A stretch of 64,000 bases of DNA, from the NCBI GenBank assembly GCA_018060985.1, contig JAGOUZ010000001.1:21057-85056 (forward strand), in the 5' to 3' direction. The stretch comes from Minisyncoccota bacterium (GTDB taxonomy: Bacteria > Patescibacteriota > Minisyncoccia > Phycocordibacterales > SBAW01). The notes below the pieces were generated by a model. The model saw only the letters and a program-made list of their open reading frames with translations. It did not search any database and was not told the origin of the DNA. Below, piece by piece: positions 21,820-60,360 of the stretch (within the stretch, counting starts at the first letter, position 1; each line of letters starts with the position of its first letter). The position numbers and the translations under genes are program-made.

Positions 21820-22389
21820 TTGAACAACAAGGGAGTATACAACGTGAGCAAGATTCGCCTCCTTATCGCCTACTTCCATGCAGGCTTTATGGACCTTGCG
21901 GTGGGCGTCCTTCTGATAAACGCCCTTACTGCAGCATTCGGGATCCCGTTTGAATGGTGGCACCTACCCCTTGGTGCAGCCCTCACCGTGCTTCCGGACT
22001 TCGATATCTTCTGGCCGCTCCTGCGAACTGTGTTTGGCGGGACCGCACGCACCGAAGACCATCATAAGACATGGCTCCATTTCCCGATCGTGATGCTTCC
22101 TGCGATTGGACTCGTAGGCTATGCGCTCGGCGGATGGGAGTGGGCTACCATTACTGTGGTCGGCGTGCTCGCGCACTATATCCACGACGCTGCCACGATC
22201 AAAAACGGTGGCGTGTACTGGTTCTTCCGCATAGAACGTACGAGGTGGACAAACTCTGAAATACCGACAGGAACCGGAGAAGAATGGACAAGAAAAAACT
22301 GGCTGCAATGGAGCCAGTTGTCGGTGATCGAAACAACGATTGGAATATGCGCACTCTTAGGCGCCCTGGCCATCATCGCTTTGCGATGA
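21820..22389 (+). CDS. YdjM-like membrane-bound metal-dependent hydrolase (DUF457-like)
   Basis: polytopic membrane protein with His-rich motifs (HYIHD). Confidence 0.5.
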   Translation: MNNKGVYNVSKIRLLIAYFHAGFMDLAVGVLLINALTAAFGIPFEWWHLPLGAALTVLPDFDIFWPLLRTVFGGTARTEDHHKTWLHFPIVMLPAIGLVGYALGGWEWATITVVGVLAHYIHDAATIKNGGVYWFFRIERTRWTNSEIPTGTGEEWTRKNWLQWSQLSVIETTIGICALLGALAIIALR

Positions 22390-23386: not shown

Positions 23387-23485
23387 CGGAGCAATAATAC
23401 GTGAGAAGTGGTAACGAAACAATTATTTGACAATTTCAGACTTCGACGTATTCTGCATATTAGCAGTTCACCCTGGAGGAACGTT

Positions 23486-32900: not shown

Positions 32901-35674
32901 CCGGTGCCAGTCGGAGGGGTCGGATATGCCGTGATGTTAGTGCGAAGTGCCTTGCCGCCGTTGTAGCCAGTAATTGGGTACTCATATGAGCGAGTATGAT
33001 TACCCCAACCACCCTGAGTCCAGCCTTGTGGTGCAGTACCCACTTGGGTCTCCATGTCCCCGTTTTGAATAAGATTTGTTGGAGTAGCTTGATTAGACAC
33101 AGTAACGGTAATTTGCGGAGCAGTACCAGTGTTGCCTGCAATGTCGCGTGCGCGTGCAGAAATAGTGTGGGTACCATTTGTAAGAGTCGTGGTATTCCAC
33201 GCAAATTCATACGGAGCCACGGTGTCTTCGGCGCCTACATCTGTACCATCAACAACAAGCGTGACACCAGCAACGCCGCCAGAGTCCCCTGCAGTAACGG
33301 CAACGGTCGTCGTGGTGCTTACAGTGCTTCCGTTAACTGGAGAATCAATAACAAGAAGAGGCGCCGTAGTATCTACGCTATTGTCGATATGTGTAATTGA
33401 AAAGTTGTCGGTGGTGAGTGAGCCAACTGCGTAGATTTCATGCCAAACGGTGAGAGATTCTACCCCAGCTGGAATAGTGACCGTTCTTTCAATTTTGGTT
33501 GGCGTGCCAACCGCAGGAACAGCACCGAGGTCGAGGTACTGGTACGTACCATTAGAGAGGCCGAGCTGCGCGTAAATCGACGTAACCACCGTTGCGGTGT
33601 AGTACTCGGTGTACACATATTGCGCTCCCGGAATAACGCTTATGGGGCTGAAGTACCACTTAGCGTTTCCGTCCACGTGATAATCCATGCTGAGTTGGAG
33701 GCCCTTAGAGCCTTCAAAGCCGGTGACCGGATACGTAAAGGTAGGATTGTTGAGACCAAAGTTTCCGCGAAGCCAGTTGAGTGGGTTGCCGCCAGGACCG
33801 TCTGCAGGAATTTCAACTGACGGGTTCTGAATAAGATTTCCCTGAACACCTGAACCGTTGTCGAGGTACAGGTTGGTGCTTGCAGTGCTAATGAGGCCTG
33901 CTGAGTCGGTTACCGTGAGAATAATTTCTGTGTATACGTCTGCTGAGCTGTGGTCAGGCGCAATAAACCAAGGATTTTTTGTATTAGTAAAATCCTGCTC
34001 AATGTGAGTATGGGTGTTGTGATGGAGAATTACCTGCCAATGAAATGCTGACGCTGGAAGAGTGCCGTCTTCACTGTCTACACCTGTACCCGTAAGCTGG
34101 ATAACATCGTTCGGCGTGTAAAGTGAGCCTGATGCCGGGCTTGTAATAGATGCGGTCGGCGCCTGATTACCGGCTGTAATCGTGATCGTCTTTGATGCCG
34201 ATGCGCCATGCGCATCAGTGAGCTTCATCACAACATTGTAGGTGCCGTTGGTAGCAAATGTATGGGATGGATTTGCCGTGTTCGAGAATGATCCGTCGTC
34301 AAAATTCCACTCGTAAGTAAGCGCATCGTTGTCCGGGTCGTATGAACCGAAGCTCGTAAATGACACCTGGAGCGGCGTAAGACCAGAAGTCGGATTACCG
34401 GAGATCTCAACAATCGGACGACGGTTACCAGTCGTGTGGGTGATGCGGTTCAACTCGCCCGTGTAAATAGAAAGGTAGTACACATTACCATCGGGACCAG
34501 TCGTTATATCCACCGGACCATCAGGGTTGTCCATAAAGTCATGCACGGAAACAAAGTTGCCGTTTTGGTCGAGCACTATGCGCTTGATCCAGTTCTGAGC
34601 GTAGTCACCAAAAAACAGGCTTGTGTCGTATGTGTCTGGATACGCATCGTTGCTTGGGAATGCACCTGCAGTTACTGAGCCCGCGCCAAACTGGTTGTGC
34701 GGATAGTCGTAGAGCGGAGTCGTGTTAGACGAGGTACAGCCGTGAGAGGTAAGACCGGTACCTTCCCAACATGGCCAGCCGTAGTTTGCACCAGCAACTA
34801 CTTTATTTATTTCCTCACGATTGCTCCAGCCCACATCGCCAGCAAACAAGGTGCCTGTAGTAGGATTAAAGTTAAAGCGGAATGAGTTACGTACGCCAAG
34901 GGCAAATACTTTAGAGCGGTTTGAGTTCGTACCATCATAAAATGGGTTTGCATCTTCTGCAGGACCATTTGTTGGTGCAGTGCCGTCACGGTCAATGCGG
35001 AGCACCTTGCCTGCAAGTGAATTTAGATCCTGTGCGCGGAGCGAACGTGGGTCCGCATAGTCAAAGTTTGCGCCGTCGCCCAAGGTTGCGTAGAGCATGC
35101 CATCTGGTCCAAAGCGAAGACCTCCAACACTGTGACTTGGAGAGTCCGAAGGAATGCAGTCTGCAGTAACTGGATAGTCCTCGCAAGACGGTGTTGCTGC
35201 ATTACCGCCAACGGTACCAACAAGGATCACCTTGCTTGACTCAAGGGCTGTATCTCCTACTACGGTAACGCGCACGATGCGGCCTGTCTTTTCGCCGCCG
35301 ACGTCAGTACCTGGGGTGTTTTCAAATGTGTATGACAAATAGAGATACCCTGTTTCAGAAAAGTTCGGATCAGCAGCAATGCCAAGAAGGCCGCGGTCGC
35401 CGAAGGTGTTGATGTCAGAAAGCCCTATAACTGGCGTCGGAAGCAGTACGCCGTTTTTAACTACCCGAACGGTGCCGCCTTTTTCTGCAATAAAGATGCG
35501 GCCGTCGTTGGCAAAGGTCATCGCGGTAGGAATAGTCAAACCCCCTACGACGGTCTCTGTCTCAAAGCCCGGCTCACTTATAGCAGCCTGTGCTACGTTA
35601 GAAGGCAAAAGGCCCGTTATGATAACGAGTGAGAAGAACGTTCCGGTGACGAATTTTTGAATAGAAGTGTTCAT
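29960..35674 (-). CDS. giant multidomain surface protein (1904 aa): signal peptide, PQQ-dependent sugar dehydrogenase-like beta-propeller, PKD, 5x CBM4_9-like modules alternating with 4x Ig-like domains, C-terminal polysaccharide deacetylase (NodB) domain split by a CBM insertion
   Basis: uninterrupted 5.7-kb ORF; propeller motifs; PKD (TYEWNFDDGS); recurring CBM starts such as NLIQNGDMETQVGTAPQGWTQGGWG, each with a GDAKWYF-type motif; NodB motifs TFDDG ... HTKTH ... YPYG ... LxH with about 170 aa inserted between MT1 and MT2. Confidence 0.85.
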   Translation of the reverse strand: MNTSIQKFVTGTFFSLVIITGLLPSNVAQAAISEPGFETETVVGGLTIPTAMTFANDGRIFIAEKGGTVRVVKNGVLLPTPVIGLSDINTFGDRGLLGIAADPNFSETGYLYLSYTFENTPGTDVGGEKTGRIVRVTVVGDTALESSKVILVGTVGGNAATPSCEDYPVTADCIPSDSPSHSVGGLRFGPDGMLYATLGDGANFDYADPRSLRAQDLNSLAGKVLRIDRDGTAPTNGPAEDANPFYDGTNSNRSKVFALGVRNSFRFNFNPTTGTLFAGDVGWSNREEINKVVAGANYGWPCWEGTGLTSHGCTSSNTTPLYDYPHNQFGAGSVTAGAFPSNDAYPDTYDTSLFFGDYAQNWIKRIVLDQNGNFVSVHDFMDNPDGPVDITTGPDGNVYYLSIYTGELNRITHTTGNRRPIVEISGNPTSGLTPLQVSFTSFGSYDPDNDALTYEWNFDDGSFSNTANPSHTFATNGTYNVVMKLTDAHGASASKTITITAGNQAPTASITSPASGSLYTPNDVIQLTGTGVDSEDGTLPASAFHWQVILHHNTHTHIEQDFTNTKNPWFIAPDHSSADVYTEIILTVTDSAGLISTASTNLYLDNGSGVQGNLIQNPSVEIPADGPGGNPLNWLRGNFGLNNPTFTYPVTGFEGSKGLQLSMDYHVDGNAKWYFSPISVIPGAQYVYTEYYTATVVTSIYAQLGLSNGTYQYLDLGAVPAVGTPTKIERTVTIPAGVESLTVWHEIYAVGSLTTDNFSITHIDNSVDTTAPLLVIDSPVNGSTVSTTTTVAVTAGDSGGVAGVTLVVDGTDVGAEDTVAPYEFAWNTTTLTNGTHTISARARDIAGNTGTAPQITVTVSNQATPTNLIQNGDMETQVGTAPQGWTQGGWGNHTRSYEYPITGYNGGKALRTNITAYPTPPTGTGDAKWAFTKIAVTPGTQYTYSDHYRSNTISDIIGQYTLADGSFHYFGLVKEIQPSTTWNTVSHTFTPPANATHVTFFHLISAVGYIEIDDAQMYVSGSGTPSETNTPIVEITNPLAGQTIHGTVGITASSTDDTAVTYIFYAVDGIPVTGQIHDAPYLYNFDTTTVGNGSHTIKATTHDPSGNNSTHTITVNVDNSVTPPTNSNLIVNPSLESAAVSGDPTSWLRGGWGTNNRAFTYPVAGPTSAKSARVEITSYTNGDAKWYFAEVPVTGGKTYSFDHVYRSNTTTEVLARYTLTGGATQYQFLGNAPASATWSQNAYSITAPLNAVSLTVFHVVHSVGFLEVDDFVLADPTATADTEAPTVSIASPAEGATLVGTTTVSVTAADNVGVTGVTLLLDGTPIGVVDTAAPYDFTWDTKTVANGSHALSARAEDHAGNITPSATVNVEVNNQVSVSNLIPNASLETAGTGGNPQNWARSAWGTNTPVFTYPVAGVDGAKGARIELTSYTNGDAKWYFTDAPVTAGKTYTLRHKYKSSVSTNLTVRYTKTDGSVVYIGLGDPAASAEWVADAHVLVIPTGVVSMTLFHSMNKVGWLEVDDYALTAGLEGTFNSGMISFTFDDGWYSHYSQAYPILNSGNLKGVFYITSNEVLQGASDELIQNPSLETFGTGSNPLNWSRGNWGTNTTVFTYPAEGVNGVSAAQIEMSSYTNGDAKWFFADVPIVEGHVYTISDQYKTTAPSETLMRYTMSDGTTQYVFLAWLPSTDGTWQTLTRTVTPPVGAISMTMFHSLAAVGSLTVDNYSLKTEQTFMSQSQVLEMEANGHEIGGHTKTHAHLPLLTQEEKIDEIVNSRTDILAMGVDSVTTIAYPYGEYDQDVQNVTRNGGYIAARGVERGYNTKTTDKYALKIQQINTTTTLEDVQGWVEQAMADKTWLILMFHQIDTDLSTDPLTATPAFLQTTVNYIKTVPINVITVQEGVASMN
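30424..33817 (-). repeat. five diverged tandem module repeats (about 600-770 bp period) inside the giant gene
   Basis: nucleotide motif ccactt(a/t)gc(g/a)tcgccgtt recurs at about 30761, 31361, 32117, 32887, 33656 (encodes GDAKW(Y/A)F). Confidence 0.6.
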
Positions 35675-39599: not shown

Positions 39600-40001
39600 C
39601 TACATGCCCTTTGGCTGCAGCATCCCCACTTTGTTTCCCTCGCTGTCTTCTATCGTTATATACAAACCTATACCAGGTATATCATCCGGTTCGCCGGGCT
39701 TCTGAGCACCAATTATCTTGCCCCCCAACTCTTCAATCTTTTTCATCGATGCCTGTATATCCTTAACTGCAATCACTACCGAGGTGTTTTGCGAGTCCCG
39801 ACTCTTCTTAAAAAATCCGCCGTTTATATGACCTGGGGTTTGCACCATGTTGTGCGAATCAGTTTCGGTGGTGTGCATCATGACATACTCGCCCATTTCT
39901 GCACCAAGCATATTGGCCTTCCAACCAAAGGCGTTGGTATAAAAGCTGGCCATGCGAGCTTTGTCTTGGTACGGCATTTCAAAATGTACTACGGGATCCA
40001 T
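39600..40001 (-). CDS. VOC/glyoxalase-family protein (PhnB-like)
   Basis: paired beta-alpha-beta-beta-beta modules, 133 aa. Confidence 0.75.
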   Translation of the reverse strand: MDPVVHFEMPYQDKARMASFYTNAFGWKANMLGAEMGEYVMMHTTETDSHNMVQTPGHINGGFFKKSRDSQNTSVVIAVKDIQASMKKIEELGGKIIGAQKPGEPDDIPGIGLYITIEDSEGNKVGMLQPKGM

Positions 40002-40066
40002 AGAGGTATTCGTTAGTGGTTATGCAGCCAGTATAGCACCGTGGGTGTTCATGCAGGTCGCATAAG

Positions 40067-40096
40067 AAAAACCCCCGCAATTAAGCGGGGGTTTGT
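40067..40096. terminator. bidirectional intrinsic terminator
   Basis: aaaacccccgcaattaagcgggggttt with flanking A/T runs. Confidence 0.55.
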
Positions 40097-40102
40097 TCTT
40101 TA

Positions 40103-40216
40103 GACAGAAGTATGTTTTGCGTCTGCCTGCTTTTTAGCCTCGGCTTCTGCGCGTTCTTTTTGCTCTTTAGCCTGCTTTTCTTTTTCTATCATGTCTTTAT
40201 TGTCAAATGTCATAGT
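40103..40216 (-). CDS. possible small K/E-rich protein (37 aa, not in ORF track)
   Basis: minus-strand ORF MTFDNKDMIEKEKQAKEQKERAEAEAKKQADAKHTSV ending just before the terminator. Confidence 0.25.
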
Positions 40217-40372
40217 AGTTCAATCGTGTTTAGGCTCGTAATACCCTCGACCACATAGCAAACTCTACACTAGTACCACTGTGGTTTGCGTGAACGCCCT
40301 ACACGGCTTCCACTCTCAGGAGATACTCGAAAAACCTCAAAAACTATGTATAATCGGGATGTTCGCTCACAT

Positions 40373-40447
40373 TCCGCGGTAGCTCAATGGTAGAGCAGCT
40401 CCCTGTTAAGGAGTTGGTTGTAGGTTCGAGTCCTACCCGCGGAGCCA
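40373..40447 (+). tRNA. tRNA-Asn (GTT), CCA encoded
   Basis: acceptor TCCGCGG/CCGCGGA, D-arm AGCTCAATGGTAGAGC, anticodon loop CTGTTAA, T-arm GTAGGTTCGAGTCCTAC; TATAAT at about 40350. Confidence 0.9.
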
Positions 40448-42016
40448 GTTGGGATTAGCGTCGCCAAAAGCGACGCTTTCCCGTTTAGGAGAGCCACCTT
40501 TAGGAGGTTCGAACCGGTCGTTTTTTCGTCTTACCGAATTTGAGACGAGAATCATCGGCAAAAGCGCAATATCGGTGTCAATGCTGATTATTTTGTCTTT
40601 CAGGAGGAGGTTCGAACCGAGGGCGGATAAAAAGACCTTTCGGGCATGCTGGCCCCGTTCGGTGAAGGCTTCTCTGGCGTCGCTTGCGAACGTGAGCACC
40701 TTGTCGGCCGTCTGCAGCCAACTGTCCACCCGGGCGTCGGTGTCATTCAAAAGTTCGTGGAGTTTTGCTTTCTCCTGATTTATCTCCGACTTCTTTCGTG
40801 CAAATTCTTCTTCGCTTATTTCTCCCGAAGCTCGCATGTCGATGAGCGCGTCGAGCTTCTTTACGCATGCCTCGTAGTTCTGTTGCTGGTTGGCAAGAAT
40901 CGCATTGCGGTCAGCGGCCTCCCGACCATTCTCGTTCTGCAGCCACTTCATTGCCCACTCGTGGAAATCCTCTGGTGGCTTGACCCGGCCAAGAGTATCC
41001 TCGATCTGTTTGTCCAGCTCCTTCACCTCGATGCATTTCTGCTTGCAGGGACCTTTGCGTTTCGTGCAGTGGTAATAAATATATCGGTGGATGTTGCCGT
41101 TCTTATTCCTCTTGGTCTTGTGCTCGGCCGTGACCATGCATCCGCACTCTCCACAGCGGATCATGCCCGTGTAGGCAAAGCTGTGCTCCTCGGGCTTTGG
41201 CTTGCTGCCACGGCCTAGAAGCGCCTGCATGCGGTCGTACTCCTCGCGTGTGATCATTGGCTCGTGCTTGCCCTTGTGCCAGTTGCCCGAGCCTTGCGGC
41301 CACTCGAACCAGCCGTAGTAGAAGGGATTGTAGAGCACGCGGTAGAAACCGCTTCGCGCGAGCTTCTTTAAGCCCCACTGGTTTACTGCGATCTCATGCA
41401 CCCTCGGCGTTGTGTATGTGCCGCTGAGGAGCATGTCGAACATTTTTCGGATGATCGGAAACATCTTCGGGTCTTTGCGTATCGTCTTGAATCCTTTCAT
41501 TTTGTCCGGCGTGTTCATGTAACCGATTGGAGCCGGGCCTGGATGCCAGCCCATCTCTACTTTGCGCCGGAGGCCGCGCTTTACGTCGACGCCTTTGTTG
41601 TCGTTCTCCAATTTCGCCTGGCTGCAGAGGAGGTTGAGAAGGAATTTGTCGTTCGGCGTATTTTTGTAAGCCTGTCCGGGCGTGCGAATGTCCTGAAGCC
41701 TGTTCTGGTCCATGAGATAGACCAGATAGCCGGTGTCGACGGAATTGCGCGAGAGGCGGTTCGGGTGCCAGGCGATGATGCCTTCGGCTTCGCCCTTTTC
41801 GATGCGCTTAATCATCGCGTTGAAGATCTCGCGCCCGGGCGCTTTGGCCGAGTACGATTCTTCGAGGCGCTCCACCACATGGAGCTTCTCTCTTTTTGCG
41901 AGTGCTTCCAATTCGCTCTTTTGCGAGTCTATCGAAAGTACCTGTCTATCTTCTTGTTCGGACGATTTGCGAGCGTAGAGGAAGTACTTGTGCTTTTGCT
42001 GTACTTCCTGGTTCAT
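40433..42016 (-). CDS. large serine recombinase (resolvase/invertase N-domain + recombinase domain + zinc ribbon)
   Basis: catalytic region YARKSSEQEDRQVLSIDSQ, recombinase domain, zinc ribbon CGECGC...YYHC...C, 527 aa; 3' end overlaps tRNA-Asn 3' end. Confidence 0.85.
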   Translation of the reverse strand: MNQEVQQKHKYFLYARKSSEQEDRQVLSIDSQKSELEALAKREKLHVVERLEESYSAKAPGREIFNAMIKRIEKGEAEGIIAWHPNRLSRNSVDTGYLVYLMDQNRLQDIRTPGQAYKNTPNDKFLLNLLCSQAKLENDNKGVDVKRGLRRKVEMGWHPGPAPIGYMNTPDKMKGFKTIRKDPKMFPIIRKMFDMLLSGTYTTPRVHEIAVNQWGLKKLARSGFYRVLYNPFYYGWFEWPQGSGNWHKGKHEPMITREEYDRMQALLGRGSKPKPEEHSFAYTGMIRCGECGCMVTAEHKTKRNKNGNIHRYIYYHCTKRKGPCKQKCIEVKELDKQIEDTLGRVKPPEDFHEWAMKWLQNENGREAADRNAILANQQQNYEACVKKLDALIDMRASGEISEEEFARKKSEINQEKAKLHELLNDTDARVDSWLQTADKVLTFASDAREAFTERGQHARKVFLSALGSNLLLKDKIISIDTDIALLPMILVSNSVRRKNDRFEPPKGGSPKRESVAFGDANPNWLRG

Positions 42017-42018
42017 GG

Positions 42019-42732
42019 CTATTGTGTGAGGTTAAATTCCTTCAGCGCGTTCCTGTATAAATCGATCGTGTTGTTGTAGCTGAAGATGTATCCGTTTGAG
42101 GCGATGCCGACTTGGATGAATGGGGCGCGTTCTGCTTCTGCGCCGTTCGGCAATTCGCTTGCGTAGCCCATGTCATTCCAGGTGAAGAAGAGGTTGCTGC
42201 CCTCCGGTCGGCCGGTCTTGCTGTTGTTCTCGAAGGTAAGCGTCGACTCTACCTGTGCGAAGTTCGGATATACCTTTGCGAGGAATGCGCGGACCTGCTG
42301 CTCAAGTTCTGCGGATGTTTTTGCGTTGCCGGTGTAATCCACCTCCCGGTGGAATGCGACGACCTGGTTTGTCTTGGGGTCTACCTCGGCGTACTCGTTA
42401 TCGGTCGCGCCTCTGAATTTGAGTGCCATTTCGTCGACGAGTCCGACGCTCTTTACTTCGTTGACCTGCTGCACGATGCCGAAGTTTGCGTAGCCTCCGT
42501 AGGTCGGCTGGGCGCTAAAGTCGTATTGTGCGCCTCCGGCTGCCTCTACCGCGCTCTTAAGAGATTTCGTGGCCTGGCTTAGGTCTGTCTGGCTCACAGC
42601 CCCCTCTCTTGGGGCCATATCGCCTGAATTCGGGACCTTATGCCCGAAGAGGTAGTAACTGCCGACCGCGAGTACTGCGATGGCGACGAGTGCTATTACG
42701 CCGTTTGTTGCTGTTTTTGTCATTGTGTTCAC
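42019..42732 (-). CDS. membrane-anchored/secreted hypothetical protein (237 aa), GC-elevated
   Basis: N-terminal TM, no recognisable domain; stop abuts recombinase start. Confidence 0.5.
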   Translation of the reverse strand: MNTMTKTATNGVIALVAIAVLAVGSYYLFGHKVPNSGDMAPREGAVSQTDLSQATKSLKSAVEAAGGAQYDFSAQPTYGGYANFGIVQQVNEVKSVGLVDEMALKFRGATDNEYAEVDPKTNQVVAFHREVDYTGNAKTSAELEQQVRAFLAKVYPNFAQVESTLTFENNSKTGRPEGSNLFFTWNDMGYASELPNGAEAERAPFIQVGIASNGYIFSYNNTIDLYRNALKEFNLTQ

Positions 42733-42931
42733 TAATTTAATTGATAATCTCTACCAACCTAACACTGGTCCTACTGGTGGAAGAAGTCAAACGATCATAG
42801 TGGTTTTTCTGGTCGCCTTTTGGTCGCCTGTTGTATAACCCTTTTCCGAGGGAGAGGGCCAAATATACCCGTCGCGTCCCCGATGGCACACCGCAAACCT
42901 GTACCGATGCTGTTCGCCTCTTGTCCGGGTC

Positions 42932-43065
42932 ATTTTCCGCCCAAGTTTTACCCAAGGTTTGCCCAAGCTCTTTAGGCGATTTTCCACCCCCATTTCACCC
43001 ACACTTTGCCCACATCTGCCTGTCGATTTCCACCCCAGTTTTACCCCAATGTTACCCCAGATACC
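42932..43065. repeat. iteron-like array: about 10 degenerate direct repeats TTT(T)NCCCA(A/C) at 12-13 bp spacing, followed by an AT-rich tract (43085-43210)
   Basis: attttccgcccaag / ttttacccaagg / tttgcccaagc / ttttccaccccca / atttcacccacac / tttgcccacatc / atttccaccccag / ttttaccccaa / gttaccccag. Confidence 0.55.
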
Positions 43066-44451: not shown

Positions 44452-45798
44452 TTAGTGACCACTATGGTCAACGCTCGCGTTGCCGTAAAAGATATCAGGT
44501 CGCTCCTCTCCTTCAACCTCAATAATCGCCCAAGCTCCTTTGTTCATGCGAGCGAGGGCGTGGTCAACTAGCACGATGTTGCCGGGCACCTCTGGGGTAA
44601 ATTCAACAATAGTTGCGCCACCTGGTAAAACCGCAGTTGTTTGGATATTTTCATGCGGCTCAGCATCGATACCACCCTCAGCATAAACTGTGTCCCATAT
44701 CTCGCCGATCGGGTGGAATGACGAAATGAGATTCACACCACCATTTCCAACGAAAATGCGCACCCTCTCACCTGTTTTTACTTTCATGCGTGGGTGTCCG
44801 TCGGTCTCGATACGTCCGTTGAAGGTCACATAATTTGGCAAACCATCAAGGAGTGCGTTGCCGTCGAAAATAGTAAGTCCCTTCTTTCCAATCTCACCTT
44901 TGGTATAAAGCTCACCTTGCACAAGATAAAACTCTTTATCGACGGGGGGCAACCCTTCTTTTGGTTCGACTAGGATAAGTCCGTACTGTCCGTGTGAGTT
45001 ATGTGTACTCACGTTTGGTGTCGCACAGTGATAAATGTAAAGGCCCGGTTGAAGCGCCTTCCATGTAAACACTTTTGTCTCACCGGGCTCGACGCGCGAA
45101 AGCGTTGAACCACCCCCCGGGCCAGTTACTGCGTGAAGGTCAATGTTGTGTGCATGGAGGCTCGACGGATGATTGGTAATTGTCATTTCGACCATGTCTC
45201 CTTCGAGCACGCGCAGCATCGGTCCGGGCACTTGCTTATTGAACGTCCAGTAGTTGAAATAGATACCTTTGGCCACTTCGGCGATCACCTCCTGTGCTGT
45301 AAGAGATATCCTAACGGTTTCGTTTGTGTCTCGGCTGATGGGCGGCGGAACATTGTTAGGGTCGGCACCTATGTCCTCGACATACTCAAAGTTTTTAAAG
45401 TTCTTTATGAACACAAGTACGTTCTTGAATGGGAGGTCGGGAAGCGCTCCACCTGGGTGATAGACATGCATGAACGCGGGCATTGCAAAATGTGGCGAGT
45501 AGGTTTTATCTGCCCACATGTATAAAAGTCCTGCAGCCATAATTACGCCAAATGTGACCGCAAGAATCTTTGAATGCACACGATATAGAAGGCGGAGTAT
45601 GAAGAAGGAGAGCGCCAAGACCACAATCGTAATGGCCCCACCCTGCATCACCGAGTAATGAATGAATGGATAGAAAGTGATCAGATTTCCAAAGCCAAAG
45701 TATGAAAACATGCTAATGAAGCCCAGGAGCACAAGGATACCGATACCAATGCCGATCTTAGTCATTGGACGACTCATCTTTCTGTATTTGAACTCCAT
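44452..45798 (-). CDS. nirK: copper-containing nitrite reductase (NirK)-family two-cupredoxin-domain protein with about 130-aa N-terminal multi-TM extension
   Basis: HNIDLHAVTGPGGG (T1/T2 Cu His motif), IYHCATPNVSTHNSHGQ (Cys/His T1 ligands; Gln at the usual axial Met position by manual alignment), 448 aa. Confidence 0.7.
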   Translation of the reverse strand: MEFKYRKMSRPMTKIGIGIGILVLLGFISMFSYFGFGNLITFYPFIHYSVMQGGAITIVVLALSFFILRLLYRVHSKILAVTFGVIMAAGLLYMWADKTYSPHFAMPAFMHVYHPGGALPDLPFKNVLVFIKNFKNFEYVEDIGADPNNVPPPISRDTNETVRISLTAQEVIAEVAKGIYFNYWTFNKQVPGPMLRVLEGDMVEMTITNHPSSLHAHNIDLHAVTGPGGGSTLSRVEPGETKVFTWKALQPGLYIYHCATPNVSTHNSHGQYGLILVEPKEGLPPVDKEFYLVQGELYTKGEIGKKGLTIFDGNALLDGLPNYVTFNGRIETDGHPRMKVKTGERVRIFVGNGGVNLISSFHPIGEIWDTVYAEGGIDAEPHENIQTTAVLPGGATIVEFTPEVPGNIVLVDHALARMNKGAWAIIEVEGEERPDIFYGNASVDHSGH

Positions 45799-45809
45799 AG
45801 TATCAATCG

Positions 45810-46172
45810 CTAATATGGGATTTTACAATCCTCAAAGCAATGTGCGCTGCGGTTAAGTGTATAAATGCGCTCCCTACCACGATCTTCGCTTTTCACCGCA
45901 TCAACTGATCGAAGGACGTTGAGGTGGTGTGTCACGGTCGGCTGCTTCAGTTTTACTTGCTCGGTAAGTTCTCCAACCGTCATGCCTTCCTTAGCTTTAC
46001 CAAGCATGCACACAAGGTTGTAGCGACTCCTGTCGCCGACTACCTTAAAGCAATCGGGGCACAGTTCCTCTTCACCGCTCGTAACCCATTCGGGGCGCGG
46101 ATATGTTTTTTCTTCTTTACCATGAACCGGTTTCGTGTTGCGACGCTTTATCCCCAACGATTTCTTATTCAT
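45810..46172 (-). CDS. ArsR/SmtB-family metalloregulator
   Basis: HTH region YNLVCMLGKAKEGMTVGELTEQVKLKQPTVTHHLNVL; Cys pairs CPDC and CFEDC; directly upstream of nirK. Confidence 0.7.
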   Translation of the reverse strand: MNKKSLGIKRRNTKPVHGKEEKTYPRPEWVTSGEEELCPDCFKVVGDRSRYNLVCMLGKAKEGMTVGELTEQVKLKQPTVTHHLNVLRSVDAVKSEDRGRERIYTLNRSAHCFEDCKIPY

Positions 46173-46232
46173 AGATGAACATCTATATGTATTATGTATA
46201 GACACTTATCAATATAACAATACCAAACCCCT

Positions 46233-47525
46233 ATGTCCAAGACACAATCCCCAGGTCTCACCGAGATAATTAAGCGCGACGGCTCAAGAGTTCCTTTTGA
46301 TAAGAAGAAGATCGTTATTGCTGTCGAGAAGGCCATGCGGGCTGCTGGGGAGTACGCGGAACATGCACCGGATATTGTCGCGGACGCGGTTGTGAAAACG
46401 CTTGCCGAAAAAAAGAAAGCGGACGACAGCTTCATTCCTTCAGTGGAGGGCGTACAAGATGAGGTCGAGCGAGTGTTGATGCTTGAAGAATTTCCTACTA
46501 CAGCAAAATCGTACATACTCTATCGCCAAGAACATGCGCTCCTACGGAAACGAGATATTTTCAAAAAGCGCATTAACCTTAAGCCGTACGAATATCCGGA
46601 ACTTTTAGAGTATGTCGATGCGATTCGTCATTCCTATTGGATACACACCGAGTTCAACTTCACGAGTGATATTCAGGACTTCAAGGTACACGTGACGCCT
46701 GCCGAGCGCACCGCAATCAAGAACGCGATGCTCGCAATCGCACAAATCGAGGTCTCGGTGAAAACATTCTGGGGGAATATCTATCATAAGCTACCGAAGC
46801 CGGAGATCGGCAATGTGGGCTACACGTTCGCGGAGAGTGAGGTACGACACCAAGATGCGTATGCCCATCTTCTTGAGATACTTGGGTTGAATCACGAGTT
46901 TGAAAAAATAAAGGAGATGCCAGCCATTCTGAAGCGTGTGAACTATCTTGAGAAGTCAATACAGCATGCGAAGAGCGACGACAATCGCGACTATGCGCAG
47001 TCCATTCTCCTTTTCTCACTCTTCGTCGAACATGTGTCGCTATTTTCGCAGTTCCTTATCATCATGGCGTTTAACAAGCATAAGAACATCTTCAAAGGAA
47101 TCTCGAATGTGATCGAGGCAACTTCAAAAGAGGAGCAAATACATGGTCTCTTCGGTATCGACATCATCAACATCATCAAACAGGAGCACCCCGAATGGTT
47201 TGACGACGCGTATAACGAAGCCATTATTGAATCGTGTCGTGAGGCGTACGAGGCGGAGAGTGCGATTGTTGATTGGATTTTCGAGGATGGCGAGCTTGAA
47301 CATATTCCCTCTGCGGTTGTGAAGGAGTTCATTAAAAACCGCTTTAACAACTCACTCTCTTCCATTGGTCTGCCGCGCATCTTTCCGACCGATGCAAAAC
47401 TGCTCGATAAAACCGAATGGTTCGACGATGAAGTTATCGCAACCAAGCATGGCGATTTCTTCGTGAAGCGCTCCATCAACTACAACAAACGCAGCAAGAG
47501 TATTACTGAGGATGATCTTTTTTAA
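46233..47525 (+). CDS. nrdB: class I ribonucleotide reductase beta subunit with N-terminal ATP-cone
   Basis: ATP-cone (IIKRDGSRVPFDKKKI...AKSYILYRQEHA) fused to ferritin-like R2 (AESEVRHQDAY, EEQIHG) with C-terminal EDDLF tail. Confidence 0.8.
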   Translation: MSKTQSPGLTEIIKRDGSRVPFDKKKIVIAVEKAMRAAGEYAEHAPDIVADAVVKTLAEKKKADDSFIPSVEGVQDEVERVLMLEEFPTTAKSYILYRQEHALLRKRDIFKKRINLKPYEYPELLEYVDAIRHSYWIHTEFNFTSDIQDFKVHVTPAERTAIKNAMLAIAQIEVSVKTFWGNIYHKLPKPEIGNVGYTFAESEVRHQDAYAHLLEILGLNHEFEKIKEMPAILKRVNYLEKSIQHAKSDDNRDYAQSILLFSLFVEHVSLFSQFLIIMAFNKHKNIFKGISNVIEATSKEEQIHGLFGIDIINIIKQEHPEWFDDAYNEAIIESCREAYEAESAIVDWIFEDGELEHIPSAVVKEFIKNRFNNSLSSIGLPRIFPTDAKLLDKTEWFDDEVIATKHGDFFVKRSINYNKRSKSITEDDLF

Positions 47526-47533
47526 TTCAACAT

Positions 47534-49204
47534 ATGTACTGGCTCAATGAAAACAGTAGGACGTTTCTCGCTAAAGGATACCTTCGTACCGGAGACAGCC
47601 CCGAAGCTCGCATCAGATTTATCGCTAACCGAGCCCAAGAAATACTTGGCATCGAAGGATTCGCCGACAAGTTTTACGAGTACATGTCACGCGGCTACTA
47701 CTCGCTTGCAACACCGGTGTGGGCGAACTTTGGTCTGCGCAAAGGTCTCCCGATCAGTTGCTTCGGCTCTTACATCGGCGACACCATGGGAGACATACTC
47801 TTTACACAAGCCGAGGCGGGAATGATGAGTAAGTTTGGTGGCGGCACATCCGGCTATTTTGGTGCTCTGCGTGGACGCGGCGCACCAATTACTGACAATG
47901 GTGTTTCGTCTGGCTCCGTGCATTTCATGCGTCTCTTTGAGAGCGTCGTGAATGTCGTATCACAAGGAGCAACACGGCGTGGGCACTTCTCCCCCTATCT
48001 TCCCATTGATCACCTGGATATCGAAGAGTTCCTCGAGATTGGCACCGAAGGAAATCCTATTCAAGAACTCACGCACGCAGTATGTGTAAGCGATGAATGG
48101 ATGAAGCAGATGATCGCAGGTGATGCGGCGAAGCGTGCAGTCTGGGCTAAGGTGCTGCAACGCCGTTCGCAGATGGGCTACCCGTACATATTCTTTACCG
48201 ATACCGTAAATAACAACACGGTCGATGTGTACAAAGATAAAGGGCTTCGCATCCACGCGAGCAATCTATGCAGCGAAATCGCCCTGCCCGCAGGTGCGGA
48301 ATGGTCATTCGTGTGCGATCTCTCGTCGCTCAACCTCCTTCACTTCGAGTTGTGGAAGGACACGGATGCGGTTGAGACGCTCGTGTATTTCCTTGATGCG
48401 GTCATGACCGACTTTATCGGTAAGCTCGAAGAAATGCGCGACTCGGAGTCGAGAGAACACAGACTGGCGTTTCAGTTTATGGAGCGAGCATACAACTTTG
48501 CCGTGGCGAACCGCGCACTTGGCGTTGGCGTACTCGGTTGGCACTCGCTCTTGCAGAGCAAGATGCTTTCGTTTGAGAGCATGGAAGCAGCAAAGCTCAA
48601 TGTTCAAATCTTCAAGACGATCAAAGAGCGCGCCTATGCGGCATCCGCAGAGCTCGCAAACCTGTACGGCGAGCCAGAGGTTCTTAAAGGATATGGTCGC
48701 CGCAATACCACGCTCATGGCGATTGCTCCGACGACATCGTCAGCGTTCATTCTCGGGCAAGTTTCGCAGAGCATCGAGCCGGTATGGTCCAACTGCTACG
48801 TGAAAGACATCGACAAAATGAAAGTGACGATCAAAAATCCATTTCTTGAAAAGCTGCTCGAAGAGAAAGGAAAAAATGACAAAGAGACATGGCACAGTGT
48901 CCGCGATAATGACGGCTCGGTACAGCATCTTCCGTTCCTGACGCAAGAAGAAAAGGATGTTTTTAAGACGTTCGCTGAGATCGACCAGTACGCTGTCGTC
49001 GGACAGGCAGCGGTACGGCAGCTGTATATCGACCAGAGTCAGTCACTCAACCTCATGATCAATCCCAAGACTCCAACCAAAGATGTGAACGCGCTATACA
49101 TCGAAGCATGGAAGCAGGGCGTGAAGTCGCTTTATTATCAACACAGCATGAACGCAGCACAGACTCTCAACAGGAAGAAGCTCTGCGTTAATTGCGAAGC
49201 CTAA
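47534..49204 (+). CDS. nrdA: class I ribonucleotide reductase alpha subunit lacking ATP-cone
   Basis: active-site NLCSEI, C-terminal Cys pair (CVNCEA), 556 aa, no N-terminal cone. Confidence 0.85.
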   Translation: MYWLNENSRTFLAKGYLRTGDSPEARIRFIANRAQEILGIEGFADKFYEYMSRGYYSLATPVWANFGLRKGLPISCFGSYIGDTMGDILFTQAEAGMMSKFGGGTSGYFGALRGRGAPITDNGVSSGSVHFMRLFESVVNVVSQGATRRGHFSPYLPIDHLDIEEFLEIGTEGNPIQELTHAVCVSDEWMKQMIAGDAAKRAVWAKVLQRRSQMGYPYIFFTDTVNNNTVDVYKDKGLRIHASNLCSEIALPAGAEWSFVCDLSSLNLLHFELWKDTDAVETLVYFLDAVMTDFIGKLEEMRDSESREHRLAFQFMERAYNFAVANRALGVGVLGWHSLLQSKMLSFESMEAAKLNVQIFKTIKERAYAASAELANLYGEPEVLKGYGRRNTTLMAIAPTTSSAFILGQVSQSIEPVWSNCYVKDIDKMKVTIKNPFLEKLLEEKGKNDKETWHSVRDNDGSVQHLPFLTQEEKDVFKTFAEIDQYAVVGQAAVRQLYIDQSQSLNLMINPKTPTKDVNALYIEAWKQGVKSLYYQHSMNAAQTLNRKKLCVNCEA

Positions 49205-49217
49205 TTGAAAAAGTACT

Positions 49218-49589
49218 ATGGAACTCTCAAACGAAGTTATCGATCTCCTGCTCAACGCTGACAGCAAAGCACTTGCCACGACGGGTCCAAACGGTCTCAA
49301 CGTCGTACCGGTTTCAACGATCCGCGTCGTTGATGGAAAGATTTTGCTTATGAACTACTTCTTTAGGAAAACTATCGAAAATATCGCTGTTCAACCCCAA
49401 GTGTCGCTCGTAGGATGGAAGGGTTTCGATGGGTACCAAGTAAAAGGTAACGTCTTGTATGTGACTGAAGGTCCTCAGTTTGACGAAGCAAAGGCGTGGG
49501 TAGCACAAAACCTGCGTGATCGAATCGTCAAAGGACTCCTTATCCTCACGCCCGAAGCCATATACAACATTTCGCCGACCACAACATAA
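49218..49589 (+). CDS. PNPOx-like FMN-binding split-barrel protein
   Basis: 123 aa, pyridoxamine-5'-phosphate-oxidase-like pattern. Confidence 0.5.
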   Translation: MELSNEVIDLLLNADSKALATTGPNGLNVVPVSTIRVVDGKILLMNYFFRKTIENIAVQPQVSLVGWKGFDGYQVKGNVLYVTEGPQFDEAKAWVAQNLRDRIVKGLLILTPEAIYNISPTTT

Positions 49590-49595
49590 AAATTC

Positions 49596-50291
49596 ATGTT
49601 TGTCGATGTTTCCGAATATATTGTACTGGCACGGAAGCAGGAAACATGCACCACGACCACGCTTACACTCGCGAAATCGGACGGCTCTATTCCTCAGTAC
49701 CGTCCAGGGCAGTGCCTCACGGTATATTTCACCGATTTTAGTCCCACGCTCGGTAAGCAGTACAGCATATCGAGCGCGCCATGTGAACAAATGTGCGCCA
49801 TAACAGTGAAGGCGATAGGAAGATTCTCCAATCGATTGTGTTCACTAGTTCCAGGAAATCGGATACTCGCTTCCGACCCACAGGGCAACTTTTGTCCTAC
49901 ATGGGAACGTAGTATGGTTCTCCTCGCTGGCGGCATGGGTATCACTCCTTTTCGAAGCGTTATTGTCGAGGCAATGTTGCTATCTCTCAATCCACAAATA
50001 AAGCTCTTTTATAGCAACAAGCTTTCAACAGATATGCCTTTTGGAAATGAACTATATTTACTTTCCCAGCAATACTCTCCGTTTAGTATCGAGCGGTTTG
50101 TTACTAAAGAGCCAACTTCGTCTACGGAGTTAAGGTATCGTCGAATGCGTCCAGATGACATTCTCAGCATACGCGACCCTCAAATCGAATACTTAATCAG
50201 TGGCTCGCTCAACTTTGTCCTCGGACTCAAGAACGCGCTCGTAGTAGCGGGTGTGGATCGGGCAAACATATTAACCGAGTCATATTTTTGA
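49596..50291 (+). CDS. ferredoxin-NADP reductase-like oxidoreductase (FAD + NAD(P) domains)
   Basis: RxYS-type FAD motif (KQYSIS), GGMGITP NAD(P) motif. Confidence 0.6.
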   Translation: MFVDVSEYIVLARKQETCTTTTLTLAKSDGSIPQYRPGQCLTVYFTDFSPTLGKQYSISSAPCEQMCAITVKAIGRFSNRLCSLVPGNRILASDPQGNFCPTWERSMVLLAGGMGITPFRSVIVEAMLLSLNPQIKLFYSNKLSTDMPFGNELYLLSQQYSPFSIERFVTKEPTSSTELRYRRMRPDDILSIRDPQIEYLISGSLNFVLGLKNALVVAGVDRANILTESYF

Positions 50292-50603
50292 CAGCACGAA
50301 TACGTATGTATTTATTTGCTAGCGAGCGCGAAGGAAGATAATTAAAATAGTGGCGGAGTATCCTGACGGCAGCATTCATCTCTTAGGAGGATCATCCCCG
50401 CTGCGGATGTACTTTCTCCATCCACCGCATGGTTTCCTCGTCGAACGGCTCCTCGTTCCGGAGGACTTTGACGGCTGCGTCCATTTCGTAGGAGTGCCAA
50501 CCGTTCTGAATGACGGTTCGAAGTTCTCGCGCTGCTCGGAGCATGATAACGACAGACCCTGCCTTGTGCAGGGTTTCGTCGTATCACGAGCACTCGCGAG
50601 CGT

Positions 50604-50697
50604 AGGGCTCGAACCGCAGGCACCCAAAAATAAGGAATCCTATGACTATATTTTTGGGGTGTTCCGACCGAAGGGAGGGGCGAGCCCTACCCGCGGA
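50604..50697. repeat. nested imperfect palindrome at the island boundary, containing the attR-like copy of the tRNA-Asn 3' end
   Basis: outer arms gcgtagggctcg / cgagccctac; inner arms cacccaaaaata / tatttttggggtg; right arm equals tRNA 3'-end repeat 50679-50697. Confidence 0.45.
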
Positions 50698-50773
50698 GCA
50701 AATTTTGACGGATATAATATATTGTGTTATATTCTTTTTGAGTAGTTCCCGCCCAATGTAAAGGAGAACGGCA

Positions 50774-58752: not shown

Positions 58753-60360
58753 TTACTGTCCTGGGTTCGGAACATTCTGTTCCTGCCAGTCGGCTGCAGT
58801 GTTGGTATCCACTGTCGCGTCTATGCGCGCAATAGAGTGCCCAGCATTAACGTCGATATTAGGAACCGAGGGTGAGAAGGCGGTGGTGTTGGTACCCCAG
58901 CTTACCGCATCAACTGTAGTCGTGCCGACAACAAGCACTAGGGATACCATATCTCCAGAATTGCCTAAGCCGTTGCCCAGCGTAGTGTTAGCGATTTGAG
59001 CTATCACTGCGTCAGCTGGGATGGTGTAGAAAGACGCTGTGGTAGAAGATGCGACAATTACGGCATATTTCCCTGCTGGGACGACCACATTTGGTAGCGC
59101 GTCGGTTGAAGACGCATCGCTTATTGAATAATCGGACAACGTTATTGAGCTATTAGTCCCATTAAATAACTCTATCCATTCGTTTGCAGTTTCGCTGCCC
59201 TGTGGAGTAGTGGTCGAGGTAGTAAGGTCATACATCACCTCTGTAATAAGGAGCTTTCCTGTTGGTGTGGGATCTTCTGCATCCAGGATTACATTAACTG
59301 TGATCGTGTCTGCGATAGTGCCGCCATCTCCTGTGCAGGTGAGCGTATAGGTAGTTGTCGCTGTTGGGCCCACCACTTCACTGCCATCCACTGCCTTGCC
59401 GCCGTTCCAGCCATTTGAGGCAGTGCAGGACGTTGCATTTGAGGAGTTCCACGTAAGCGTGGTCGTGGCACCTTCGTTAATAGTATTTTGTGCTGCCGTA
59501 AAGGTAAGCGTTGGATCTTCAGGTTCTGGAGCAACGGACGTTACGCTAACCACAACACTCTGCGTTGTGGTGCCACCTGCACCTGAACACTCGAGCTGAT
59601 ACGTCGTCGTTGCTGTTGGGGACACACTCTGTGACCCATCTACCGTCTTAGACCCTGACCAGCCATTTGTTGCTGTGCAGGCTGTAGCGTTCGTTGAGTC
59701 CCAGGTAAGAACTGAAGAGGAACCAGTTTGTATAGAGGTCGGATTAGCGCTAAAGCTAAGCGTTGGCTGTGTGGGTGTTGGGAAGTTACAGGAGTCTCCG
59801 TCCCAAGTTCCCCCATTCGCTACGCACTGTGCATCAGCACAGGGACCGCTTGATTGATTACCGGGCACATTTGGGCACGCGTCAGTAGGTTGCGGCACTT
59901 CGCACGAGTCGCCATCCCACGTACCCCCATTGTCCTCACAGACATCGTCTGCACACGGACGGGAAGTCTGATCACCTGGCACATTTGGGCATTTATCAAC
60001 CGGCGGAGGCGGAGGAGTATCTTTTTTACATGGCAAGAACACCGGCACCGAGAGCCAGCCCGCTTTAATAGTTGAAGGGCACAGTTTACCCGGGAAATTA
60101 TTAAAGTTACCAAAAAAGTTGGAAGAATTTCCCTTCCTTGAGGAATTTTCTTCACTTGCCTCTTCACTTACATCTATATCATCTAACCTCTCATCTGCAG
60201 CAATGCGCATTTGTATACGCTCTTGTGCACTCTGCCGTATGCTATCTCGGTCAAGAGAAAGCCCGCCCTGTGCAGCACTAACTGCAAATGGCGTAACAAC
60301 GAATAACGAGACCCCGATCAGTAACCCAACAGTCTTCCCCAAACAACGCAGTCGGTCCAT
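58753..60360 (-). CDS. secreted surface protein: Cys-knot repeats, two Ig-like repeats, C-terminal lamin-tail domain
   Basis: signal peptide; repeated CPNVPG...C..GGTWDGDSC; duplicated about 95-aa Ig-like units; LTD pattern LLITEVMYD...EWIELFN. Confidence 0.7.
   Translation of the reverse strand: MDRLRCLGKTVGLLIGVSLFVVTPFAVSAAQGGLSLDRDSIRQSAQERIQMRIAADERLDDIDVSEEASEENSSRKGNSSNFFGNFNNFPGKLCPSTIKAGWLSVPVFLPCKKDTPPPPPVDKCPNVPGDQTSRPCADDVCEDNGGTWDGDSCEVPQPTDACPNVPGNQSSGPCADAQCVANGGTWDGDSCNFPTPTQPTLSFSANPTSIQTGSSSVLTWDSTNATACTATNGWSGSKTVDGSQSVSPTATTTYQLECSGAGGTTTQSVVVSVTSVAPEPEDPTLTFTAAQNTINEGATTTLTWNSSNATSCTASNGWNGGKAVDGSEVVGPTATTTYTLTCTGDGGTIADTITVNVILDAEDPTPTGKLLITEVMYDLTTSTTTPQGSETANEWIELFNGTNSSITLSDYSISDASSTDALPNVVVPAGKYAVIVASSTTASFYTIPADAVIAQIANTTLGNGLGNSGDMVSLVLVVGTTTVDAVSWGTNTTAFSPSVPNIDVNAGHSIARIDATVDTNTAADWQEQNVPNPGQ

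Follow-up and report, generated by a model that had tools for sequence, protein, structure and literature searches.

A probable class Id ribonucleotide reductase with an ATP-cone on NrdB and two candidate flavoprotein helpers, encoded on a putative tRNA-Asn island of a Minisyncoccota bacterium

We analyzed a stretch of 64,000 nucleotides (nt) of a Minisyncoccota bacterium (contig JAGOUZ010000001.1, positions 21,057 to 85,056), referred to here as the window, with a focus on a ribonucleotide reductase (RNR) operon that also contains genes for two probable flavoproteins. The operon almost certainly encodes an aerobic class Id RNR (NrdAi/NrdBi) with allosteric regulation through the beta subunit; its biochemistry is carried over from orthologues with approximately 70% sequence identity. 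The explanation that accounts best for the locus as a whole is a class Id RNR accompanied by a flavoprotein helper pair and placed on an island next to a divergently transcribed arsR-nirK pair, and we give this combined reading modest credence, a little above even.

The operon consists of four open reading frames (ORFs) on the forward strand, which lie exactly where the initial annotation had placed them (Table 1) and encode proteins of 430, 556, 123 and 231 amino acids (aa). The gaps between nrdB, nrdA, the PNPOx-like gene and the FNR-like gene are 8, 13 and 6 nt, and therefore the four genes form one tightly packed operon. No convincing internal terminator was found within these gaps. In-frame stop codons precede the ATG of nrdB by 18 nt and that of nrdA by 21 nt.

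The initial annotation had described an ATP-cone at the N-terminus of NrdB and a cone-less NrdA of 556 aa. Indeed, the N-terminal region of NrdB scored as an ATP-cone in a Pfam scan (residues 11-102, E=9.5e-20, 71.4 bits with a cut-off of 25.8), and it is followed by a Ribonuc_red_sm domain (residues 113-387, E=8.7e-62). NrdB aligns without gaps to NrdBi of Leeuwenhoekiella blandensis (PDB 5OLK), residues 6-430 onto 6-430 (E=5.7e-185). In NrdA, only the large-chain domains Ribonuc_red_lgN and Ribonuc_red_lgC were detected, and a Pfam scan of the 556-aa ORF found no ATP-cone. The upstream in-frame stop excludes the loss of a cone through a wrongly chosen start, which had been named as a finding that would overturn the description. 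NrdA belongs to the NCBIfam equivalog TIGR02510 ('NrdE-prime'; 771.7 bits with a cut-off of 602), and its best PDB matches are class Id alpha structures (6DQX, E=1.5e-216; 6DQW, E=3e-182). The active-site motif NLCSEI (N244/C246/E248), the tyrosine pair Y534-Y535 and the C-terminal C551-x-x-C554 were all found. Both halves of the described architecture were borne out.

Class Id is defined by a glutamate instead of an aspartate as first metal ligand and by a conserved second-sphere tyrosine (PMC8463856). This pairing is found in NrdB as E173 and Y210, which correspond to Glu170 and Tyr207 of L. blandensis; the mapping uses the +3 offset of the tagged crystal sequence. The hallmark residues are all present (E173, K177, W180, E203/H206, Y210, E266, T297, E301/H304) and are invariant across 18 homologues. 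K177, T297, W180 and E266 are the counterparts of K174, T294, W177 and E263 in L. blandensis (PMC5794259). In class Id proteins, the lysine lies in a distorted helix 1 and is directed toward the metal site, the threonine forms a hydrogen bond with the tyrosine, and the tryptophan forms one with the glutamate ligand. The cone of NrdB contains K14, R15, D76, E79, M83, K92, I95/L96, R98 and R105. The residues described for the dATP-tetramer interface and the gamma-phosphate of L. blandensis NrdBi (PMC5794259), namely D73, D76, M80, K89, I92/I93, R95 and R102, map onto D76, E79, M83, K92, I95/L96, R98 and R105, the sole change being the conservative Asp-to-Glu exchange at E79.

By transfer from the orthologue, NrdB should hold a stable Mn2(IV,III) radical-initiating cofactor that is built from Mn(II) and superoxide, and no tyrosyl radical. 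RNR activity should be switched by ATP and dATP at the NrdB cone; dATP would lead to inactive beta4 tetramers as in L. blandensis, and the ATP-bound form would be an active dimer. The similarity to the NrdAi/NrdBi system of L. blandensis (5OLK; PMC5794259, PMC8350387) extends to a collinear NrdB of 430 residues with a core that is ~70% identical, the metal ligands, the Lys, Trp, Tyr and Thr residues, the interface and phosphate residues of the cone, and a cone-less NrdA of ~560 aa. The order of the genes is likewise shared: nrdB precedes nrdA, and beta before alpha is typical for cone-bearing beta subunits (PMC9669993). In contrast to L. blandensis, the host of the window is a bacterium of the Candidate Phyla Radiation (CPR; Paceibacteria-type), E79 stands in place of Asp, and the locus adds two flavoprotein genes, an arsR-nirK divergon with a shared conserved palindrome, and a tRNA-Asn island with a serine integrase. 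The class Id RNRs of Flavobacterium johnsoniae, Actinobacillus ureae and Facklamia ignava (6CWP, 6DQW, 6DQX; PMC8463856, PMC6754362) share the Tyr/Glu pairing, the lysine in the unwound helix 1 and a minimal alpha subunit. They differ in that the beta subunit of F. johnsoniae has no cone, whereas that of F. ignava carries a glutaredoxin (Grx) domain as well as a cone, and accessory flavoproteins have been reported for none of these RNRs, whereas the operon in the window has two candidates. Class Id RNRs with a cone on beta were already described in 2018, and the window contains a further example.

The comparison with L. blandensis made in the initial annotation is upheld by the gap-free match to 5OLK, but the accompanying statement that the architecture is rare is not. 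In 2018, 93 RefSeq sequences were counted, mostly from Flavobacteriales (PMC5794259). Among the best database clusters, 120 of 120 contain both the ATP-cone and the NrdB domain, and NrdB shows 100% identity to a protein of a 'Candidatus Pacebacteria' metagenome-assembled genome. Pattern scans confirmed cone-NrdB in at least 579 stretches of metagenome contigs and at least 539 of viral contigs. The cone was confirmed in 80/80 metagenome loci and 78/80 viral loci that were fetched, and 76 of the 80 viral loci keep the beta-to-alpha order. The cone-on-NrdB architecture is thus common in environmental sequence, with many cases in CPR bacteria, marine metagenomes and viral contigs, and is not rare outside RefSeq. 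A literature search of incomplete coverage found no report of a cone-NrdB in CPR bacteria. The locus extends this type of RNR firmly into the CPR and onto a mobile island, and an O2-dependent route to DNA precursors is thus open to lateral gain by organisms with tiny genomes.

As had been proposed, the operon continues with a PNPOx-like gene and an FNR-like gene. The 123-aa product of the former matches Pfam PNPOx_N (PF01243; E=1.2e-9, 39 bits with a cut-off of 28.1), and its AlphaFold2 (AF2) model (pLDDT 94.3) is a minimal split beta-barrel. Foldseek searches with this model returned HupZ of Streptococcus pyogenes (TM 0.82) and the flavin mononucleotide (FMN)-binding protein (FMN-bp) of Desulfovibrio vulgaris (Miyazaki F; TM 0.79), and gave a probability of 1.00 to many members of the family. 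Both proteins share the fold of ~120 aa, but are only 24-26% identical to the 123-aa protein. The invariant K51-T52 aligns with K53-T54 of FMN-bp, where K53 makes an ionic contact with the FMN phosphate (PMC4699859). The Lys-Thr pair of FMN-bp is invariant in the family of the window protein, whereas HupZ has Gln-Thr at this position. The 123-aa protein contains neither His nor Cys, and the haem binding of HupZ has been traced to a His-tag artefact (PMC7865249). For these reasons, FMN is predicted to be the likely cofactor and is favoured over haem. Two points weaken this prediction: the FMN-stacking Trp32 of FMN-bp has no counterpart in the 123-aa protein, which does not have the Trp32-Asn33 insert, and membership in the PNPOx-like fold does not imply FMN binding (PMC11602992). 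The HupZ match and the flavohaemoglobin-like reductase encoded by the neighbouring gene also prompted us to consider a haem-binding, split flavohaemoglobin with nitric oxide (NO) dioxygenase activity. This is unlikely in view of the missing His and Cys residues and of the HupZ artefact.

The 231-aa product of the last gene matches NAD_binding_1 (Pfam; E=2.1e-6), and its residues 5-228 cover positions 154-390 of NF009805, which is the reductase part of flavohaemoglobin (Hmp) from end to end. The AF2 model (pLDDT 92.9) has two domains, an FAD barrel and an NAD-binding fold, and Foldseek placed it close to 4EH1 (TM 0.85), 1GVH (0.86) and flavodoxin reductase 1FDR (0.80). Both the flavin motif K54-Q-Y56-S57, in which Lys replaces the Arg of R-x-Y-S/T, and the nucleotide motif G113-M-G115-I-T117-P118 are conserved. 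The FAD/NAD module of Hmp (4EH1, 1GVH) is the best match in sequence and structure, but the 231-aa protein stands alone without a globin, and its neighbour offers no possible His or Cys ligand for haem. A free-flavin reductase of the Fre type was considered in place of a module with bound FAD and rejected, as Fre is absent from the top 50 Foldseek hits. The family is small (52 clusters, all 214-244 aa), and no Rosetta-stone fusions were found in these clusters. In all 15 loci in which the FNR-like gene was found, it lies directly 3' of a PNPOx-like gene, even at 42% identity. Because of this strict adjacency and of an FAD/NAD fold near Hmp and flavodoxin reductase, the FNR-like protein is predicted to be the reductase of the 123-aa protein.

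To place the PNPOx-like gene in its genomic context, whose family is small (93 clusters), we fetched 80 genome loci that encode relatives; 72 of them had enough flanking sequence to be evaluated. L-numbers designate these and other related loci fetched for comparison with the window. Within 5 kb on either side, the only recurrent neighbours in the 80 loci were NrdB (41), NrdA (41), NirK (23), ArsR (21) and FNR (10), and the next family reached 7. The PNPOx-like gene lies directly 3' of a cone-bearing nrdB and nrdA, in the same order as in the window, in 36 of the 72 evaluable loci (median gap 27.5 nt), and a class Id RNR is found within 10 kb in 7 further loci. Linkage to nrdA is seen in both the CPR and the Flavobacteriaceae; four loci from metagenome-assembled genomes of the latter (L051, L057, L059, L065) carry an RNR-linked PNPOx-like gene with no NirK, ArsR or FNR nearby. 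In a neighbour-joining tree of the family, none of the deep clades is without RNR-linked members. A separate RNR-specific subfamily was rejected, since RNR-linked, NirK-linked and unlinked members are interleaved in this tree. Taken together with its frequency in other samples (see below), the PNPOx-like gene is a recurrent but dispensable, that is, accessory partner of class Id operons. A literature search of incomplete coverage found no accessory flavoprotein of class Id, and the recurrence observed here goes beyond the literature that could be searched. At three loci, class III RNR genes (an ATP-cone NrdD and a radical-SAM NrdG) are located 1-6 kb from the PNPOx-like gene (L061:11371-14385; L074:13422-17268; L064:2389-6003). 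Class Id and class III RNRs are clustered in L061 and L064, and in L074 the PNPOx-like gene is near a class III RNR only.

In class Ib RNRs, the flavoprotein NrdI together with a flavodoxin reductase activates the Mn2 protein NrdF (PMC8463856). For class Id, the literature knows of no activase and leaves the assembly of the cofactor in vivo unsettled (PMC6754362). We consider it reasonably probable that the FNR-like and the split-barrel protein form an electron-transfer pair driven by NAD(P)H. That this pair is a non-essential, NrdI-like helper in assembly or maintenance of the Mn2 cofactor of NrdB is suggested by gene order and fold, and we regard it as possible, if somewhat doubtful. In this scheme, NAD(P)H would reduce the FAD on the FNR-like protein, which in turn would reduce the FMN on the split-barrel protein. 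Reduced FMN would then react with O2 to give superoxide or peroxide beside NrdB, where Mn2(II,II) could be oxidised via the channel lined by K177. Alternatively, the pair might maintain the NrdB cofactor in some other way. A fermentative CPR cell, which has few superoxide sources of its own, would benefit from such a helper. A stronger version, which we put forward tentatively and rate as rather unlikely, is that the split-barrel protein, recharged by the FNR-like protein where this is present, is the activase that has been sought in vain for class Id in vivo. It would then play the part of NrdI without being homologous to it, produce superoxide at the channel of NrdB, and have been recruited where free superoxide is scarce. 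Such settings might be fermentative bacteria of the CPR or cells in which NO derived from NirK scavenges superoxide. It is a speculative but uniting idea that scavenging by this NO is what makes a dedicated superoxide source necessary for class Id activation. In any case, a small flavoprotein whose gene recurs immediately 3' of nrdA, in some loci along with that of an NAD(P)H reductase, is a concrete and cheap candidate for a class Id activase.

Two known systems are comparable. NrdI is a small FMN protein that is encoded in the operon of a class I RNR with a superoxide-dependent beta subunit, and it can be recharged by an FNR-type reductase (PMC8463856). In a similar way, nrdA in the window is followed by a gene for a small probable FMN protein and then by one for an FNR-type reductase. 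The 123-aa protein, however, is modelled as a split beta-barrel and not as a flavodoxin-like fold, and would be at most a functional analogue. In the E. coli system of Fre and YfaE, which serves class Ia maintenance, an NAD(P)H-dependent reductase of the flavin or FNR family is implicated in forming or maintaining the RNR cofactor and is known to produce superoxide; references 28 and 66 cited in PMC5302844 concern flavin reductases that give rise to superoxide and that take part in generating the RNR radical. Fre is encoded outside the nrd operon and acts on free flavins, whereas the FNR-like protein of the window is nearer to the Hmp and Fpr modules.

Several observations weigh against an obligatory or an RNR-specific helper role. 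A class Id RNR is missing within 10 kb in 29 of the 72 evaluable PNPOx-like loci, 10 of which have NirK nearby. Conversely, only 6 of 55 evaluable metagenome cone-NrdB operons (~11%) and none of 80 viral cone-NrdB loci contain the PNPOx-like gene, and relatives were found in none of 2.9 million viral contigs, so that viral carriage, which was tried as a test of an RNR-specific role, gave a negative result. In this respect the PNPOx-like gene differs from NrdI: it is not universal for its RNR subclass and also occurs away from RNR genes. In addition, Mn(II) and free superoxide suffice for class Id beta to self-activate in vitro (PMC8463856). Because of the viral and metagenome frequencies and of this self-activation, a helper role cannot be obligatory.

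Part of this evidence agrees with a different assignment, in which the pair is a general cytoplasmic module for redox stress or for nitrogen oxides and oxygen, for example an NAD(P)H oxidase or a detoxifying reductase, that belongs with ArsR and NirK and merely shares divergon and island with the RNR. The PNPOx-like gene stands beside ArsR/NirK without an RNR in L005, L012, L027, L032, L075, L076, L010 and L055, an independent island in L007 carries PNPOx, FNR and NirK as cargo, so that the flavoprotein pair and NirK travel without an RNR, and FNR-like genes are almost confined to islands with ArsR/NirK (9 of 10 FNR-carrying genome loci). The operator palindrome is the same whether nrdB or the PNPOx-like gene follows it, and the latter gene is missing from viral RNR modules. 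The closest structures of the FNR-like protein are reductase modules of NO dioxygenases (flavohaemoglobins), and in L166 a protein with Cyt-b5 and cytochrome-d1 domains, encoded directly 3' of FNR, fits a theme of nitrogen oxides and redox stress. If the pair belongs there, it would define a small redox cassette on CPR islands, under the control of ArsR, by which nitrite reduction and aerobic dNTP synthesis are regulated together. However, 21 of the 36 RNR-adjacent loci contain neither ArsR nor NirK, including all Flavobacteriaceae loci, in which the PNPOx-like gene starts 18-107 nt past nrdA, and RNR genes are by far its commonest neighbours. The absence of His and Cys also leaves the 123-aa protein without a haem ligand for an Hmp-like NO dioxygenase, and NirK, predicted from its three N-terminal hydrophobic segments to face outward, would be no direct partner of a cytoplasmic flavoprotein. 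We consider this assignment, the main rival, unlikely, though it deserves to be kept in mind.

The flavoprotein genes could also lack any functional link to the RNR and be hitch-hiking cargo that was assembled with it on islands and spread as a block by horizontal transfer. In favour of this, the integrase islands that harbour the cassette differ in the arrangement of their cargo (window, L030, L007, L164-L166), and NrdB cores from CPR and from Flavobacteriaceae are 70-76% identical, which suggests that the operon moved laterally. Yet nrdA is followed by PNPOx even where identity has fallen to 45% for the PNPOx-like protein and 65% for NrdA, and also where the flanks examined showed no integrase, NirK or ArsR. 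Gaps of 4-44 nt suggest translational coupling, and in the sampled cone-NrdB operons the PNPOx-like gene is the only recurrent gene on the same strand downstream of nrdA. Pure hitch-hiking thus appears improbable. RNR operons often bring along a reductant, for instance NrdH or, in F. ignava, the Grx domain that is fused to NrdB (PMC6187632), and the FNR-like protein is an NAD(P)H oxidoreductase, so that the pair might replace thioredoxin or glutaredoxin as the donor that re-reduces the C-terminal CxxC and the active-site cysteines of NrdA. The 123-aa protein is free of cysteine, however, and the FNR-like protein shows neither the motif of a redox-active disulfide nor the fold of the thioredoxin-reductase type. 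To our knowledge, no flavin-only split-barrel protein acts as a disulfide reductase, and we regard this role as very improbable. Of the two functions that the initial annotation had offered for the flavoproteins, the supply of reducing equivalents to NrdA is accordingly unlikely, and cofactor maintenance is plausible and has the support of genomic context, while still unproven.

The operon is divergent from the arsR-nirK pair with a shared conserved palindromic operator, and the whole cassette is cargo of an island of ~10.3 kb in tRNA-Asn; from the sequence features in Table 1, we hold this to be very probable. The island comprises the integrase, four small backbone ORFs, NirK, ArsR, nrdB, nrdA, PNPOx and FNR. 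Carriage of the complete cassette on such an island likewise exceeds what the searchable literature describes. The view that the operon lies on a mobile segment gained support from the tRNA-Asn gene, the abutting serine integrase and an att-like repeat of the tRNA 3' end, which lies 385 nt past the FNR-like stop and has an exact core of 14 nt (CCTACCCGCGGAGC). No phage structural genes were matched, only the integrase and a weakly replication-initiator-like ORF, and a prophage was therefore rejected. GC content and skew do not mark the island. The AT skew is strongly negative (-0.25 to -0.29) at 40000-43000, which covers the integrase and the 237-aa ORF, unlike in the rest of the window.

Table 1. 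Features of the island and of the RNR operon in the window.
Feature	Coordinates	Strand	Evidence
tRNA-Asn (GTT), integration target, left island end	40373..40447	+	ARAGORN; Rfam tRNA 73 bits
Large serine recombinase/integrase, 527 aa; stop overlaps tRNA 3' end	40433..42016	-	Pfam Resolvase, Recombinase, Zn_ribbon_recom; PHROG phrog_95 E=1.2e-65
Backbone ORFs: 237 aa, 145 aa (weakly replication-initiator-like), SpoVG-like 100 aa, 64 aa	42019..44086	-	SpoVG E=1.5e-7; phrog_270 E=8e-6 (145 aa)
Copper nitrite reductase NirK, ~130-aa N-terminal extension	44452..45798	-	TIGR02376 315.4 bits (cut-off 296.3)
ArsR/SmtB-family regulator, 120 aa from ATG (ORF open to 46205)	45810..46172	-	NF033788 62.6 bits (cut-off 55)
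Operator-like palindromes between arsR and nrdB	46171..46202	.	ATAGAT-N4-ATCTAT 46171-46186; TCTATA-N9-TATAGA 46182-46202
NrdB (probable class Id beta, NrdBi), N-terminal ATP-cone and Mn2-type ferritin-like core	46233..47525	+	Pfam, PDB 5OLK, hallmark residues
NrdA (probable class Id alpha, NrdAi), cone-less minimal catalytic subunit	47534..49204	+	TIGR02510, PDB 6DQX/6DQW, motifs
Split-barrel (PNPOx-like) protein, 123 aa, probably FMN-binding	49218..49589	+	Pfam PNPOx_N, AF2 and Foldseek
FNR-type NAD(P)H:FAD oxidoreductase, 231 aa, like the flavohaemoglobin (Hmp) reductase module	49596..50291	+	Pfam, NCBIfam, AF2 and Foldseek
Imperfect direct repeat of tRNA-Asn 3' end, right island end (att remnant)	50676..50704	+	24/29 identical

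Homologues of the integrase adjoin a similar cassette in L030, L007, L004, L029 and L164-L166. L030 contains the integrase together with the set of backbone ORFs at 82-94% identity; a second att repeat was not found within this 20-kb locus. The 527-aa integrase of L166 comes after several small ORFs, among them a SpoVG-like gene and an ORF of 234 aa, and in both L030 and L166 the same or a similar backbone flanks the cargo on the side opposite to that in the window. The serine recombinase of L164 and L165 is a different one. The island in L007 (6746-13657, ~6.9 kb) also lies in tRNA-Asn and has an integrase with 33% identity and an exact repeat of 19 nt of the tRNA 3' end. The protein encoded directly 3' of the FNR-like gene in L166 (8703-10787) has 694 aa and combines a Cyt-b5 domain with a cytochrome-d1 propeller of the cd1 nitrite-reductase type (240 bits). 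The cassette of L166 is otherwise identical, and this pairing of domains is unusual for a CPR island. Between the FNR-like stop and the att repeat of the window, an ORF of ~50 aa with a helical appearance (MLRAARELRTVIQNGWHSYEMDAAV...) was translated by hand from the minus strand (~50376-50530) and possibly belongs to the island; no Pfam match was obtained for the minus-strand translation of 50376-50530, although the frame may differ from that of the hand-translated ORF.

The arsR and nirK genes are separated by 11 nt, and the pair is divergent from the nrd operon across 60 nt. The arsR gene call in L001 is likewise 120 aa long. A hydropathy analysis revealed three hydrophobic segments in the extension of NirK (approximately residues 13-37, 49-75 and 76-96), which is thus probably a membrane-anchored, outward-facing nitrite reductase. 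The palindrome ATAGATGAACATCTAT (46171-46186) overlaps the arsR start codon and is unique in the window, with 0 occurrences expected by chance. A palindrome of this 6-4-6 form was found in 24 of 26 ArsR-containing loci, with nrdB or the PNPOx-like gene as the first divergent gene, and the TCTATA-N9-TATAGA palindrome is common to the window, L004, L030 and L162-L166. Promoter-like hexamers overlap the operator-like palindrome on both strands. The palindromes look like a putative ArsR operator of a divergon that would couple nirK with the nrd/flavoprotein operon.

Outside the island, the window is ordinary core chromosome. It encodes a surface-type multidomain protein of 1904 aa (29960-35674, minus strand; GSDH, PKD, three Big_7 and polysaccharide deacetylase domains), which adjoins a GH26-like protein. 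Two MreB paralogues (444 and 445 bits), MreC and a class I (archaeal-type) lysyl-tRNA synthetase are also present (15686-16741 and 22373-23422, minus strand; 10893-12437, minus strand) in this reduced CPR genome. Two direct repeats of 89 nt with 71% identity and a spacing of 114 nt are located at 59789-59991, inside the gene for a 535-aa protein with a lamin-tail domain.

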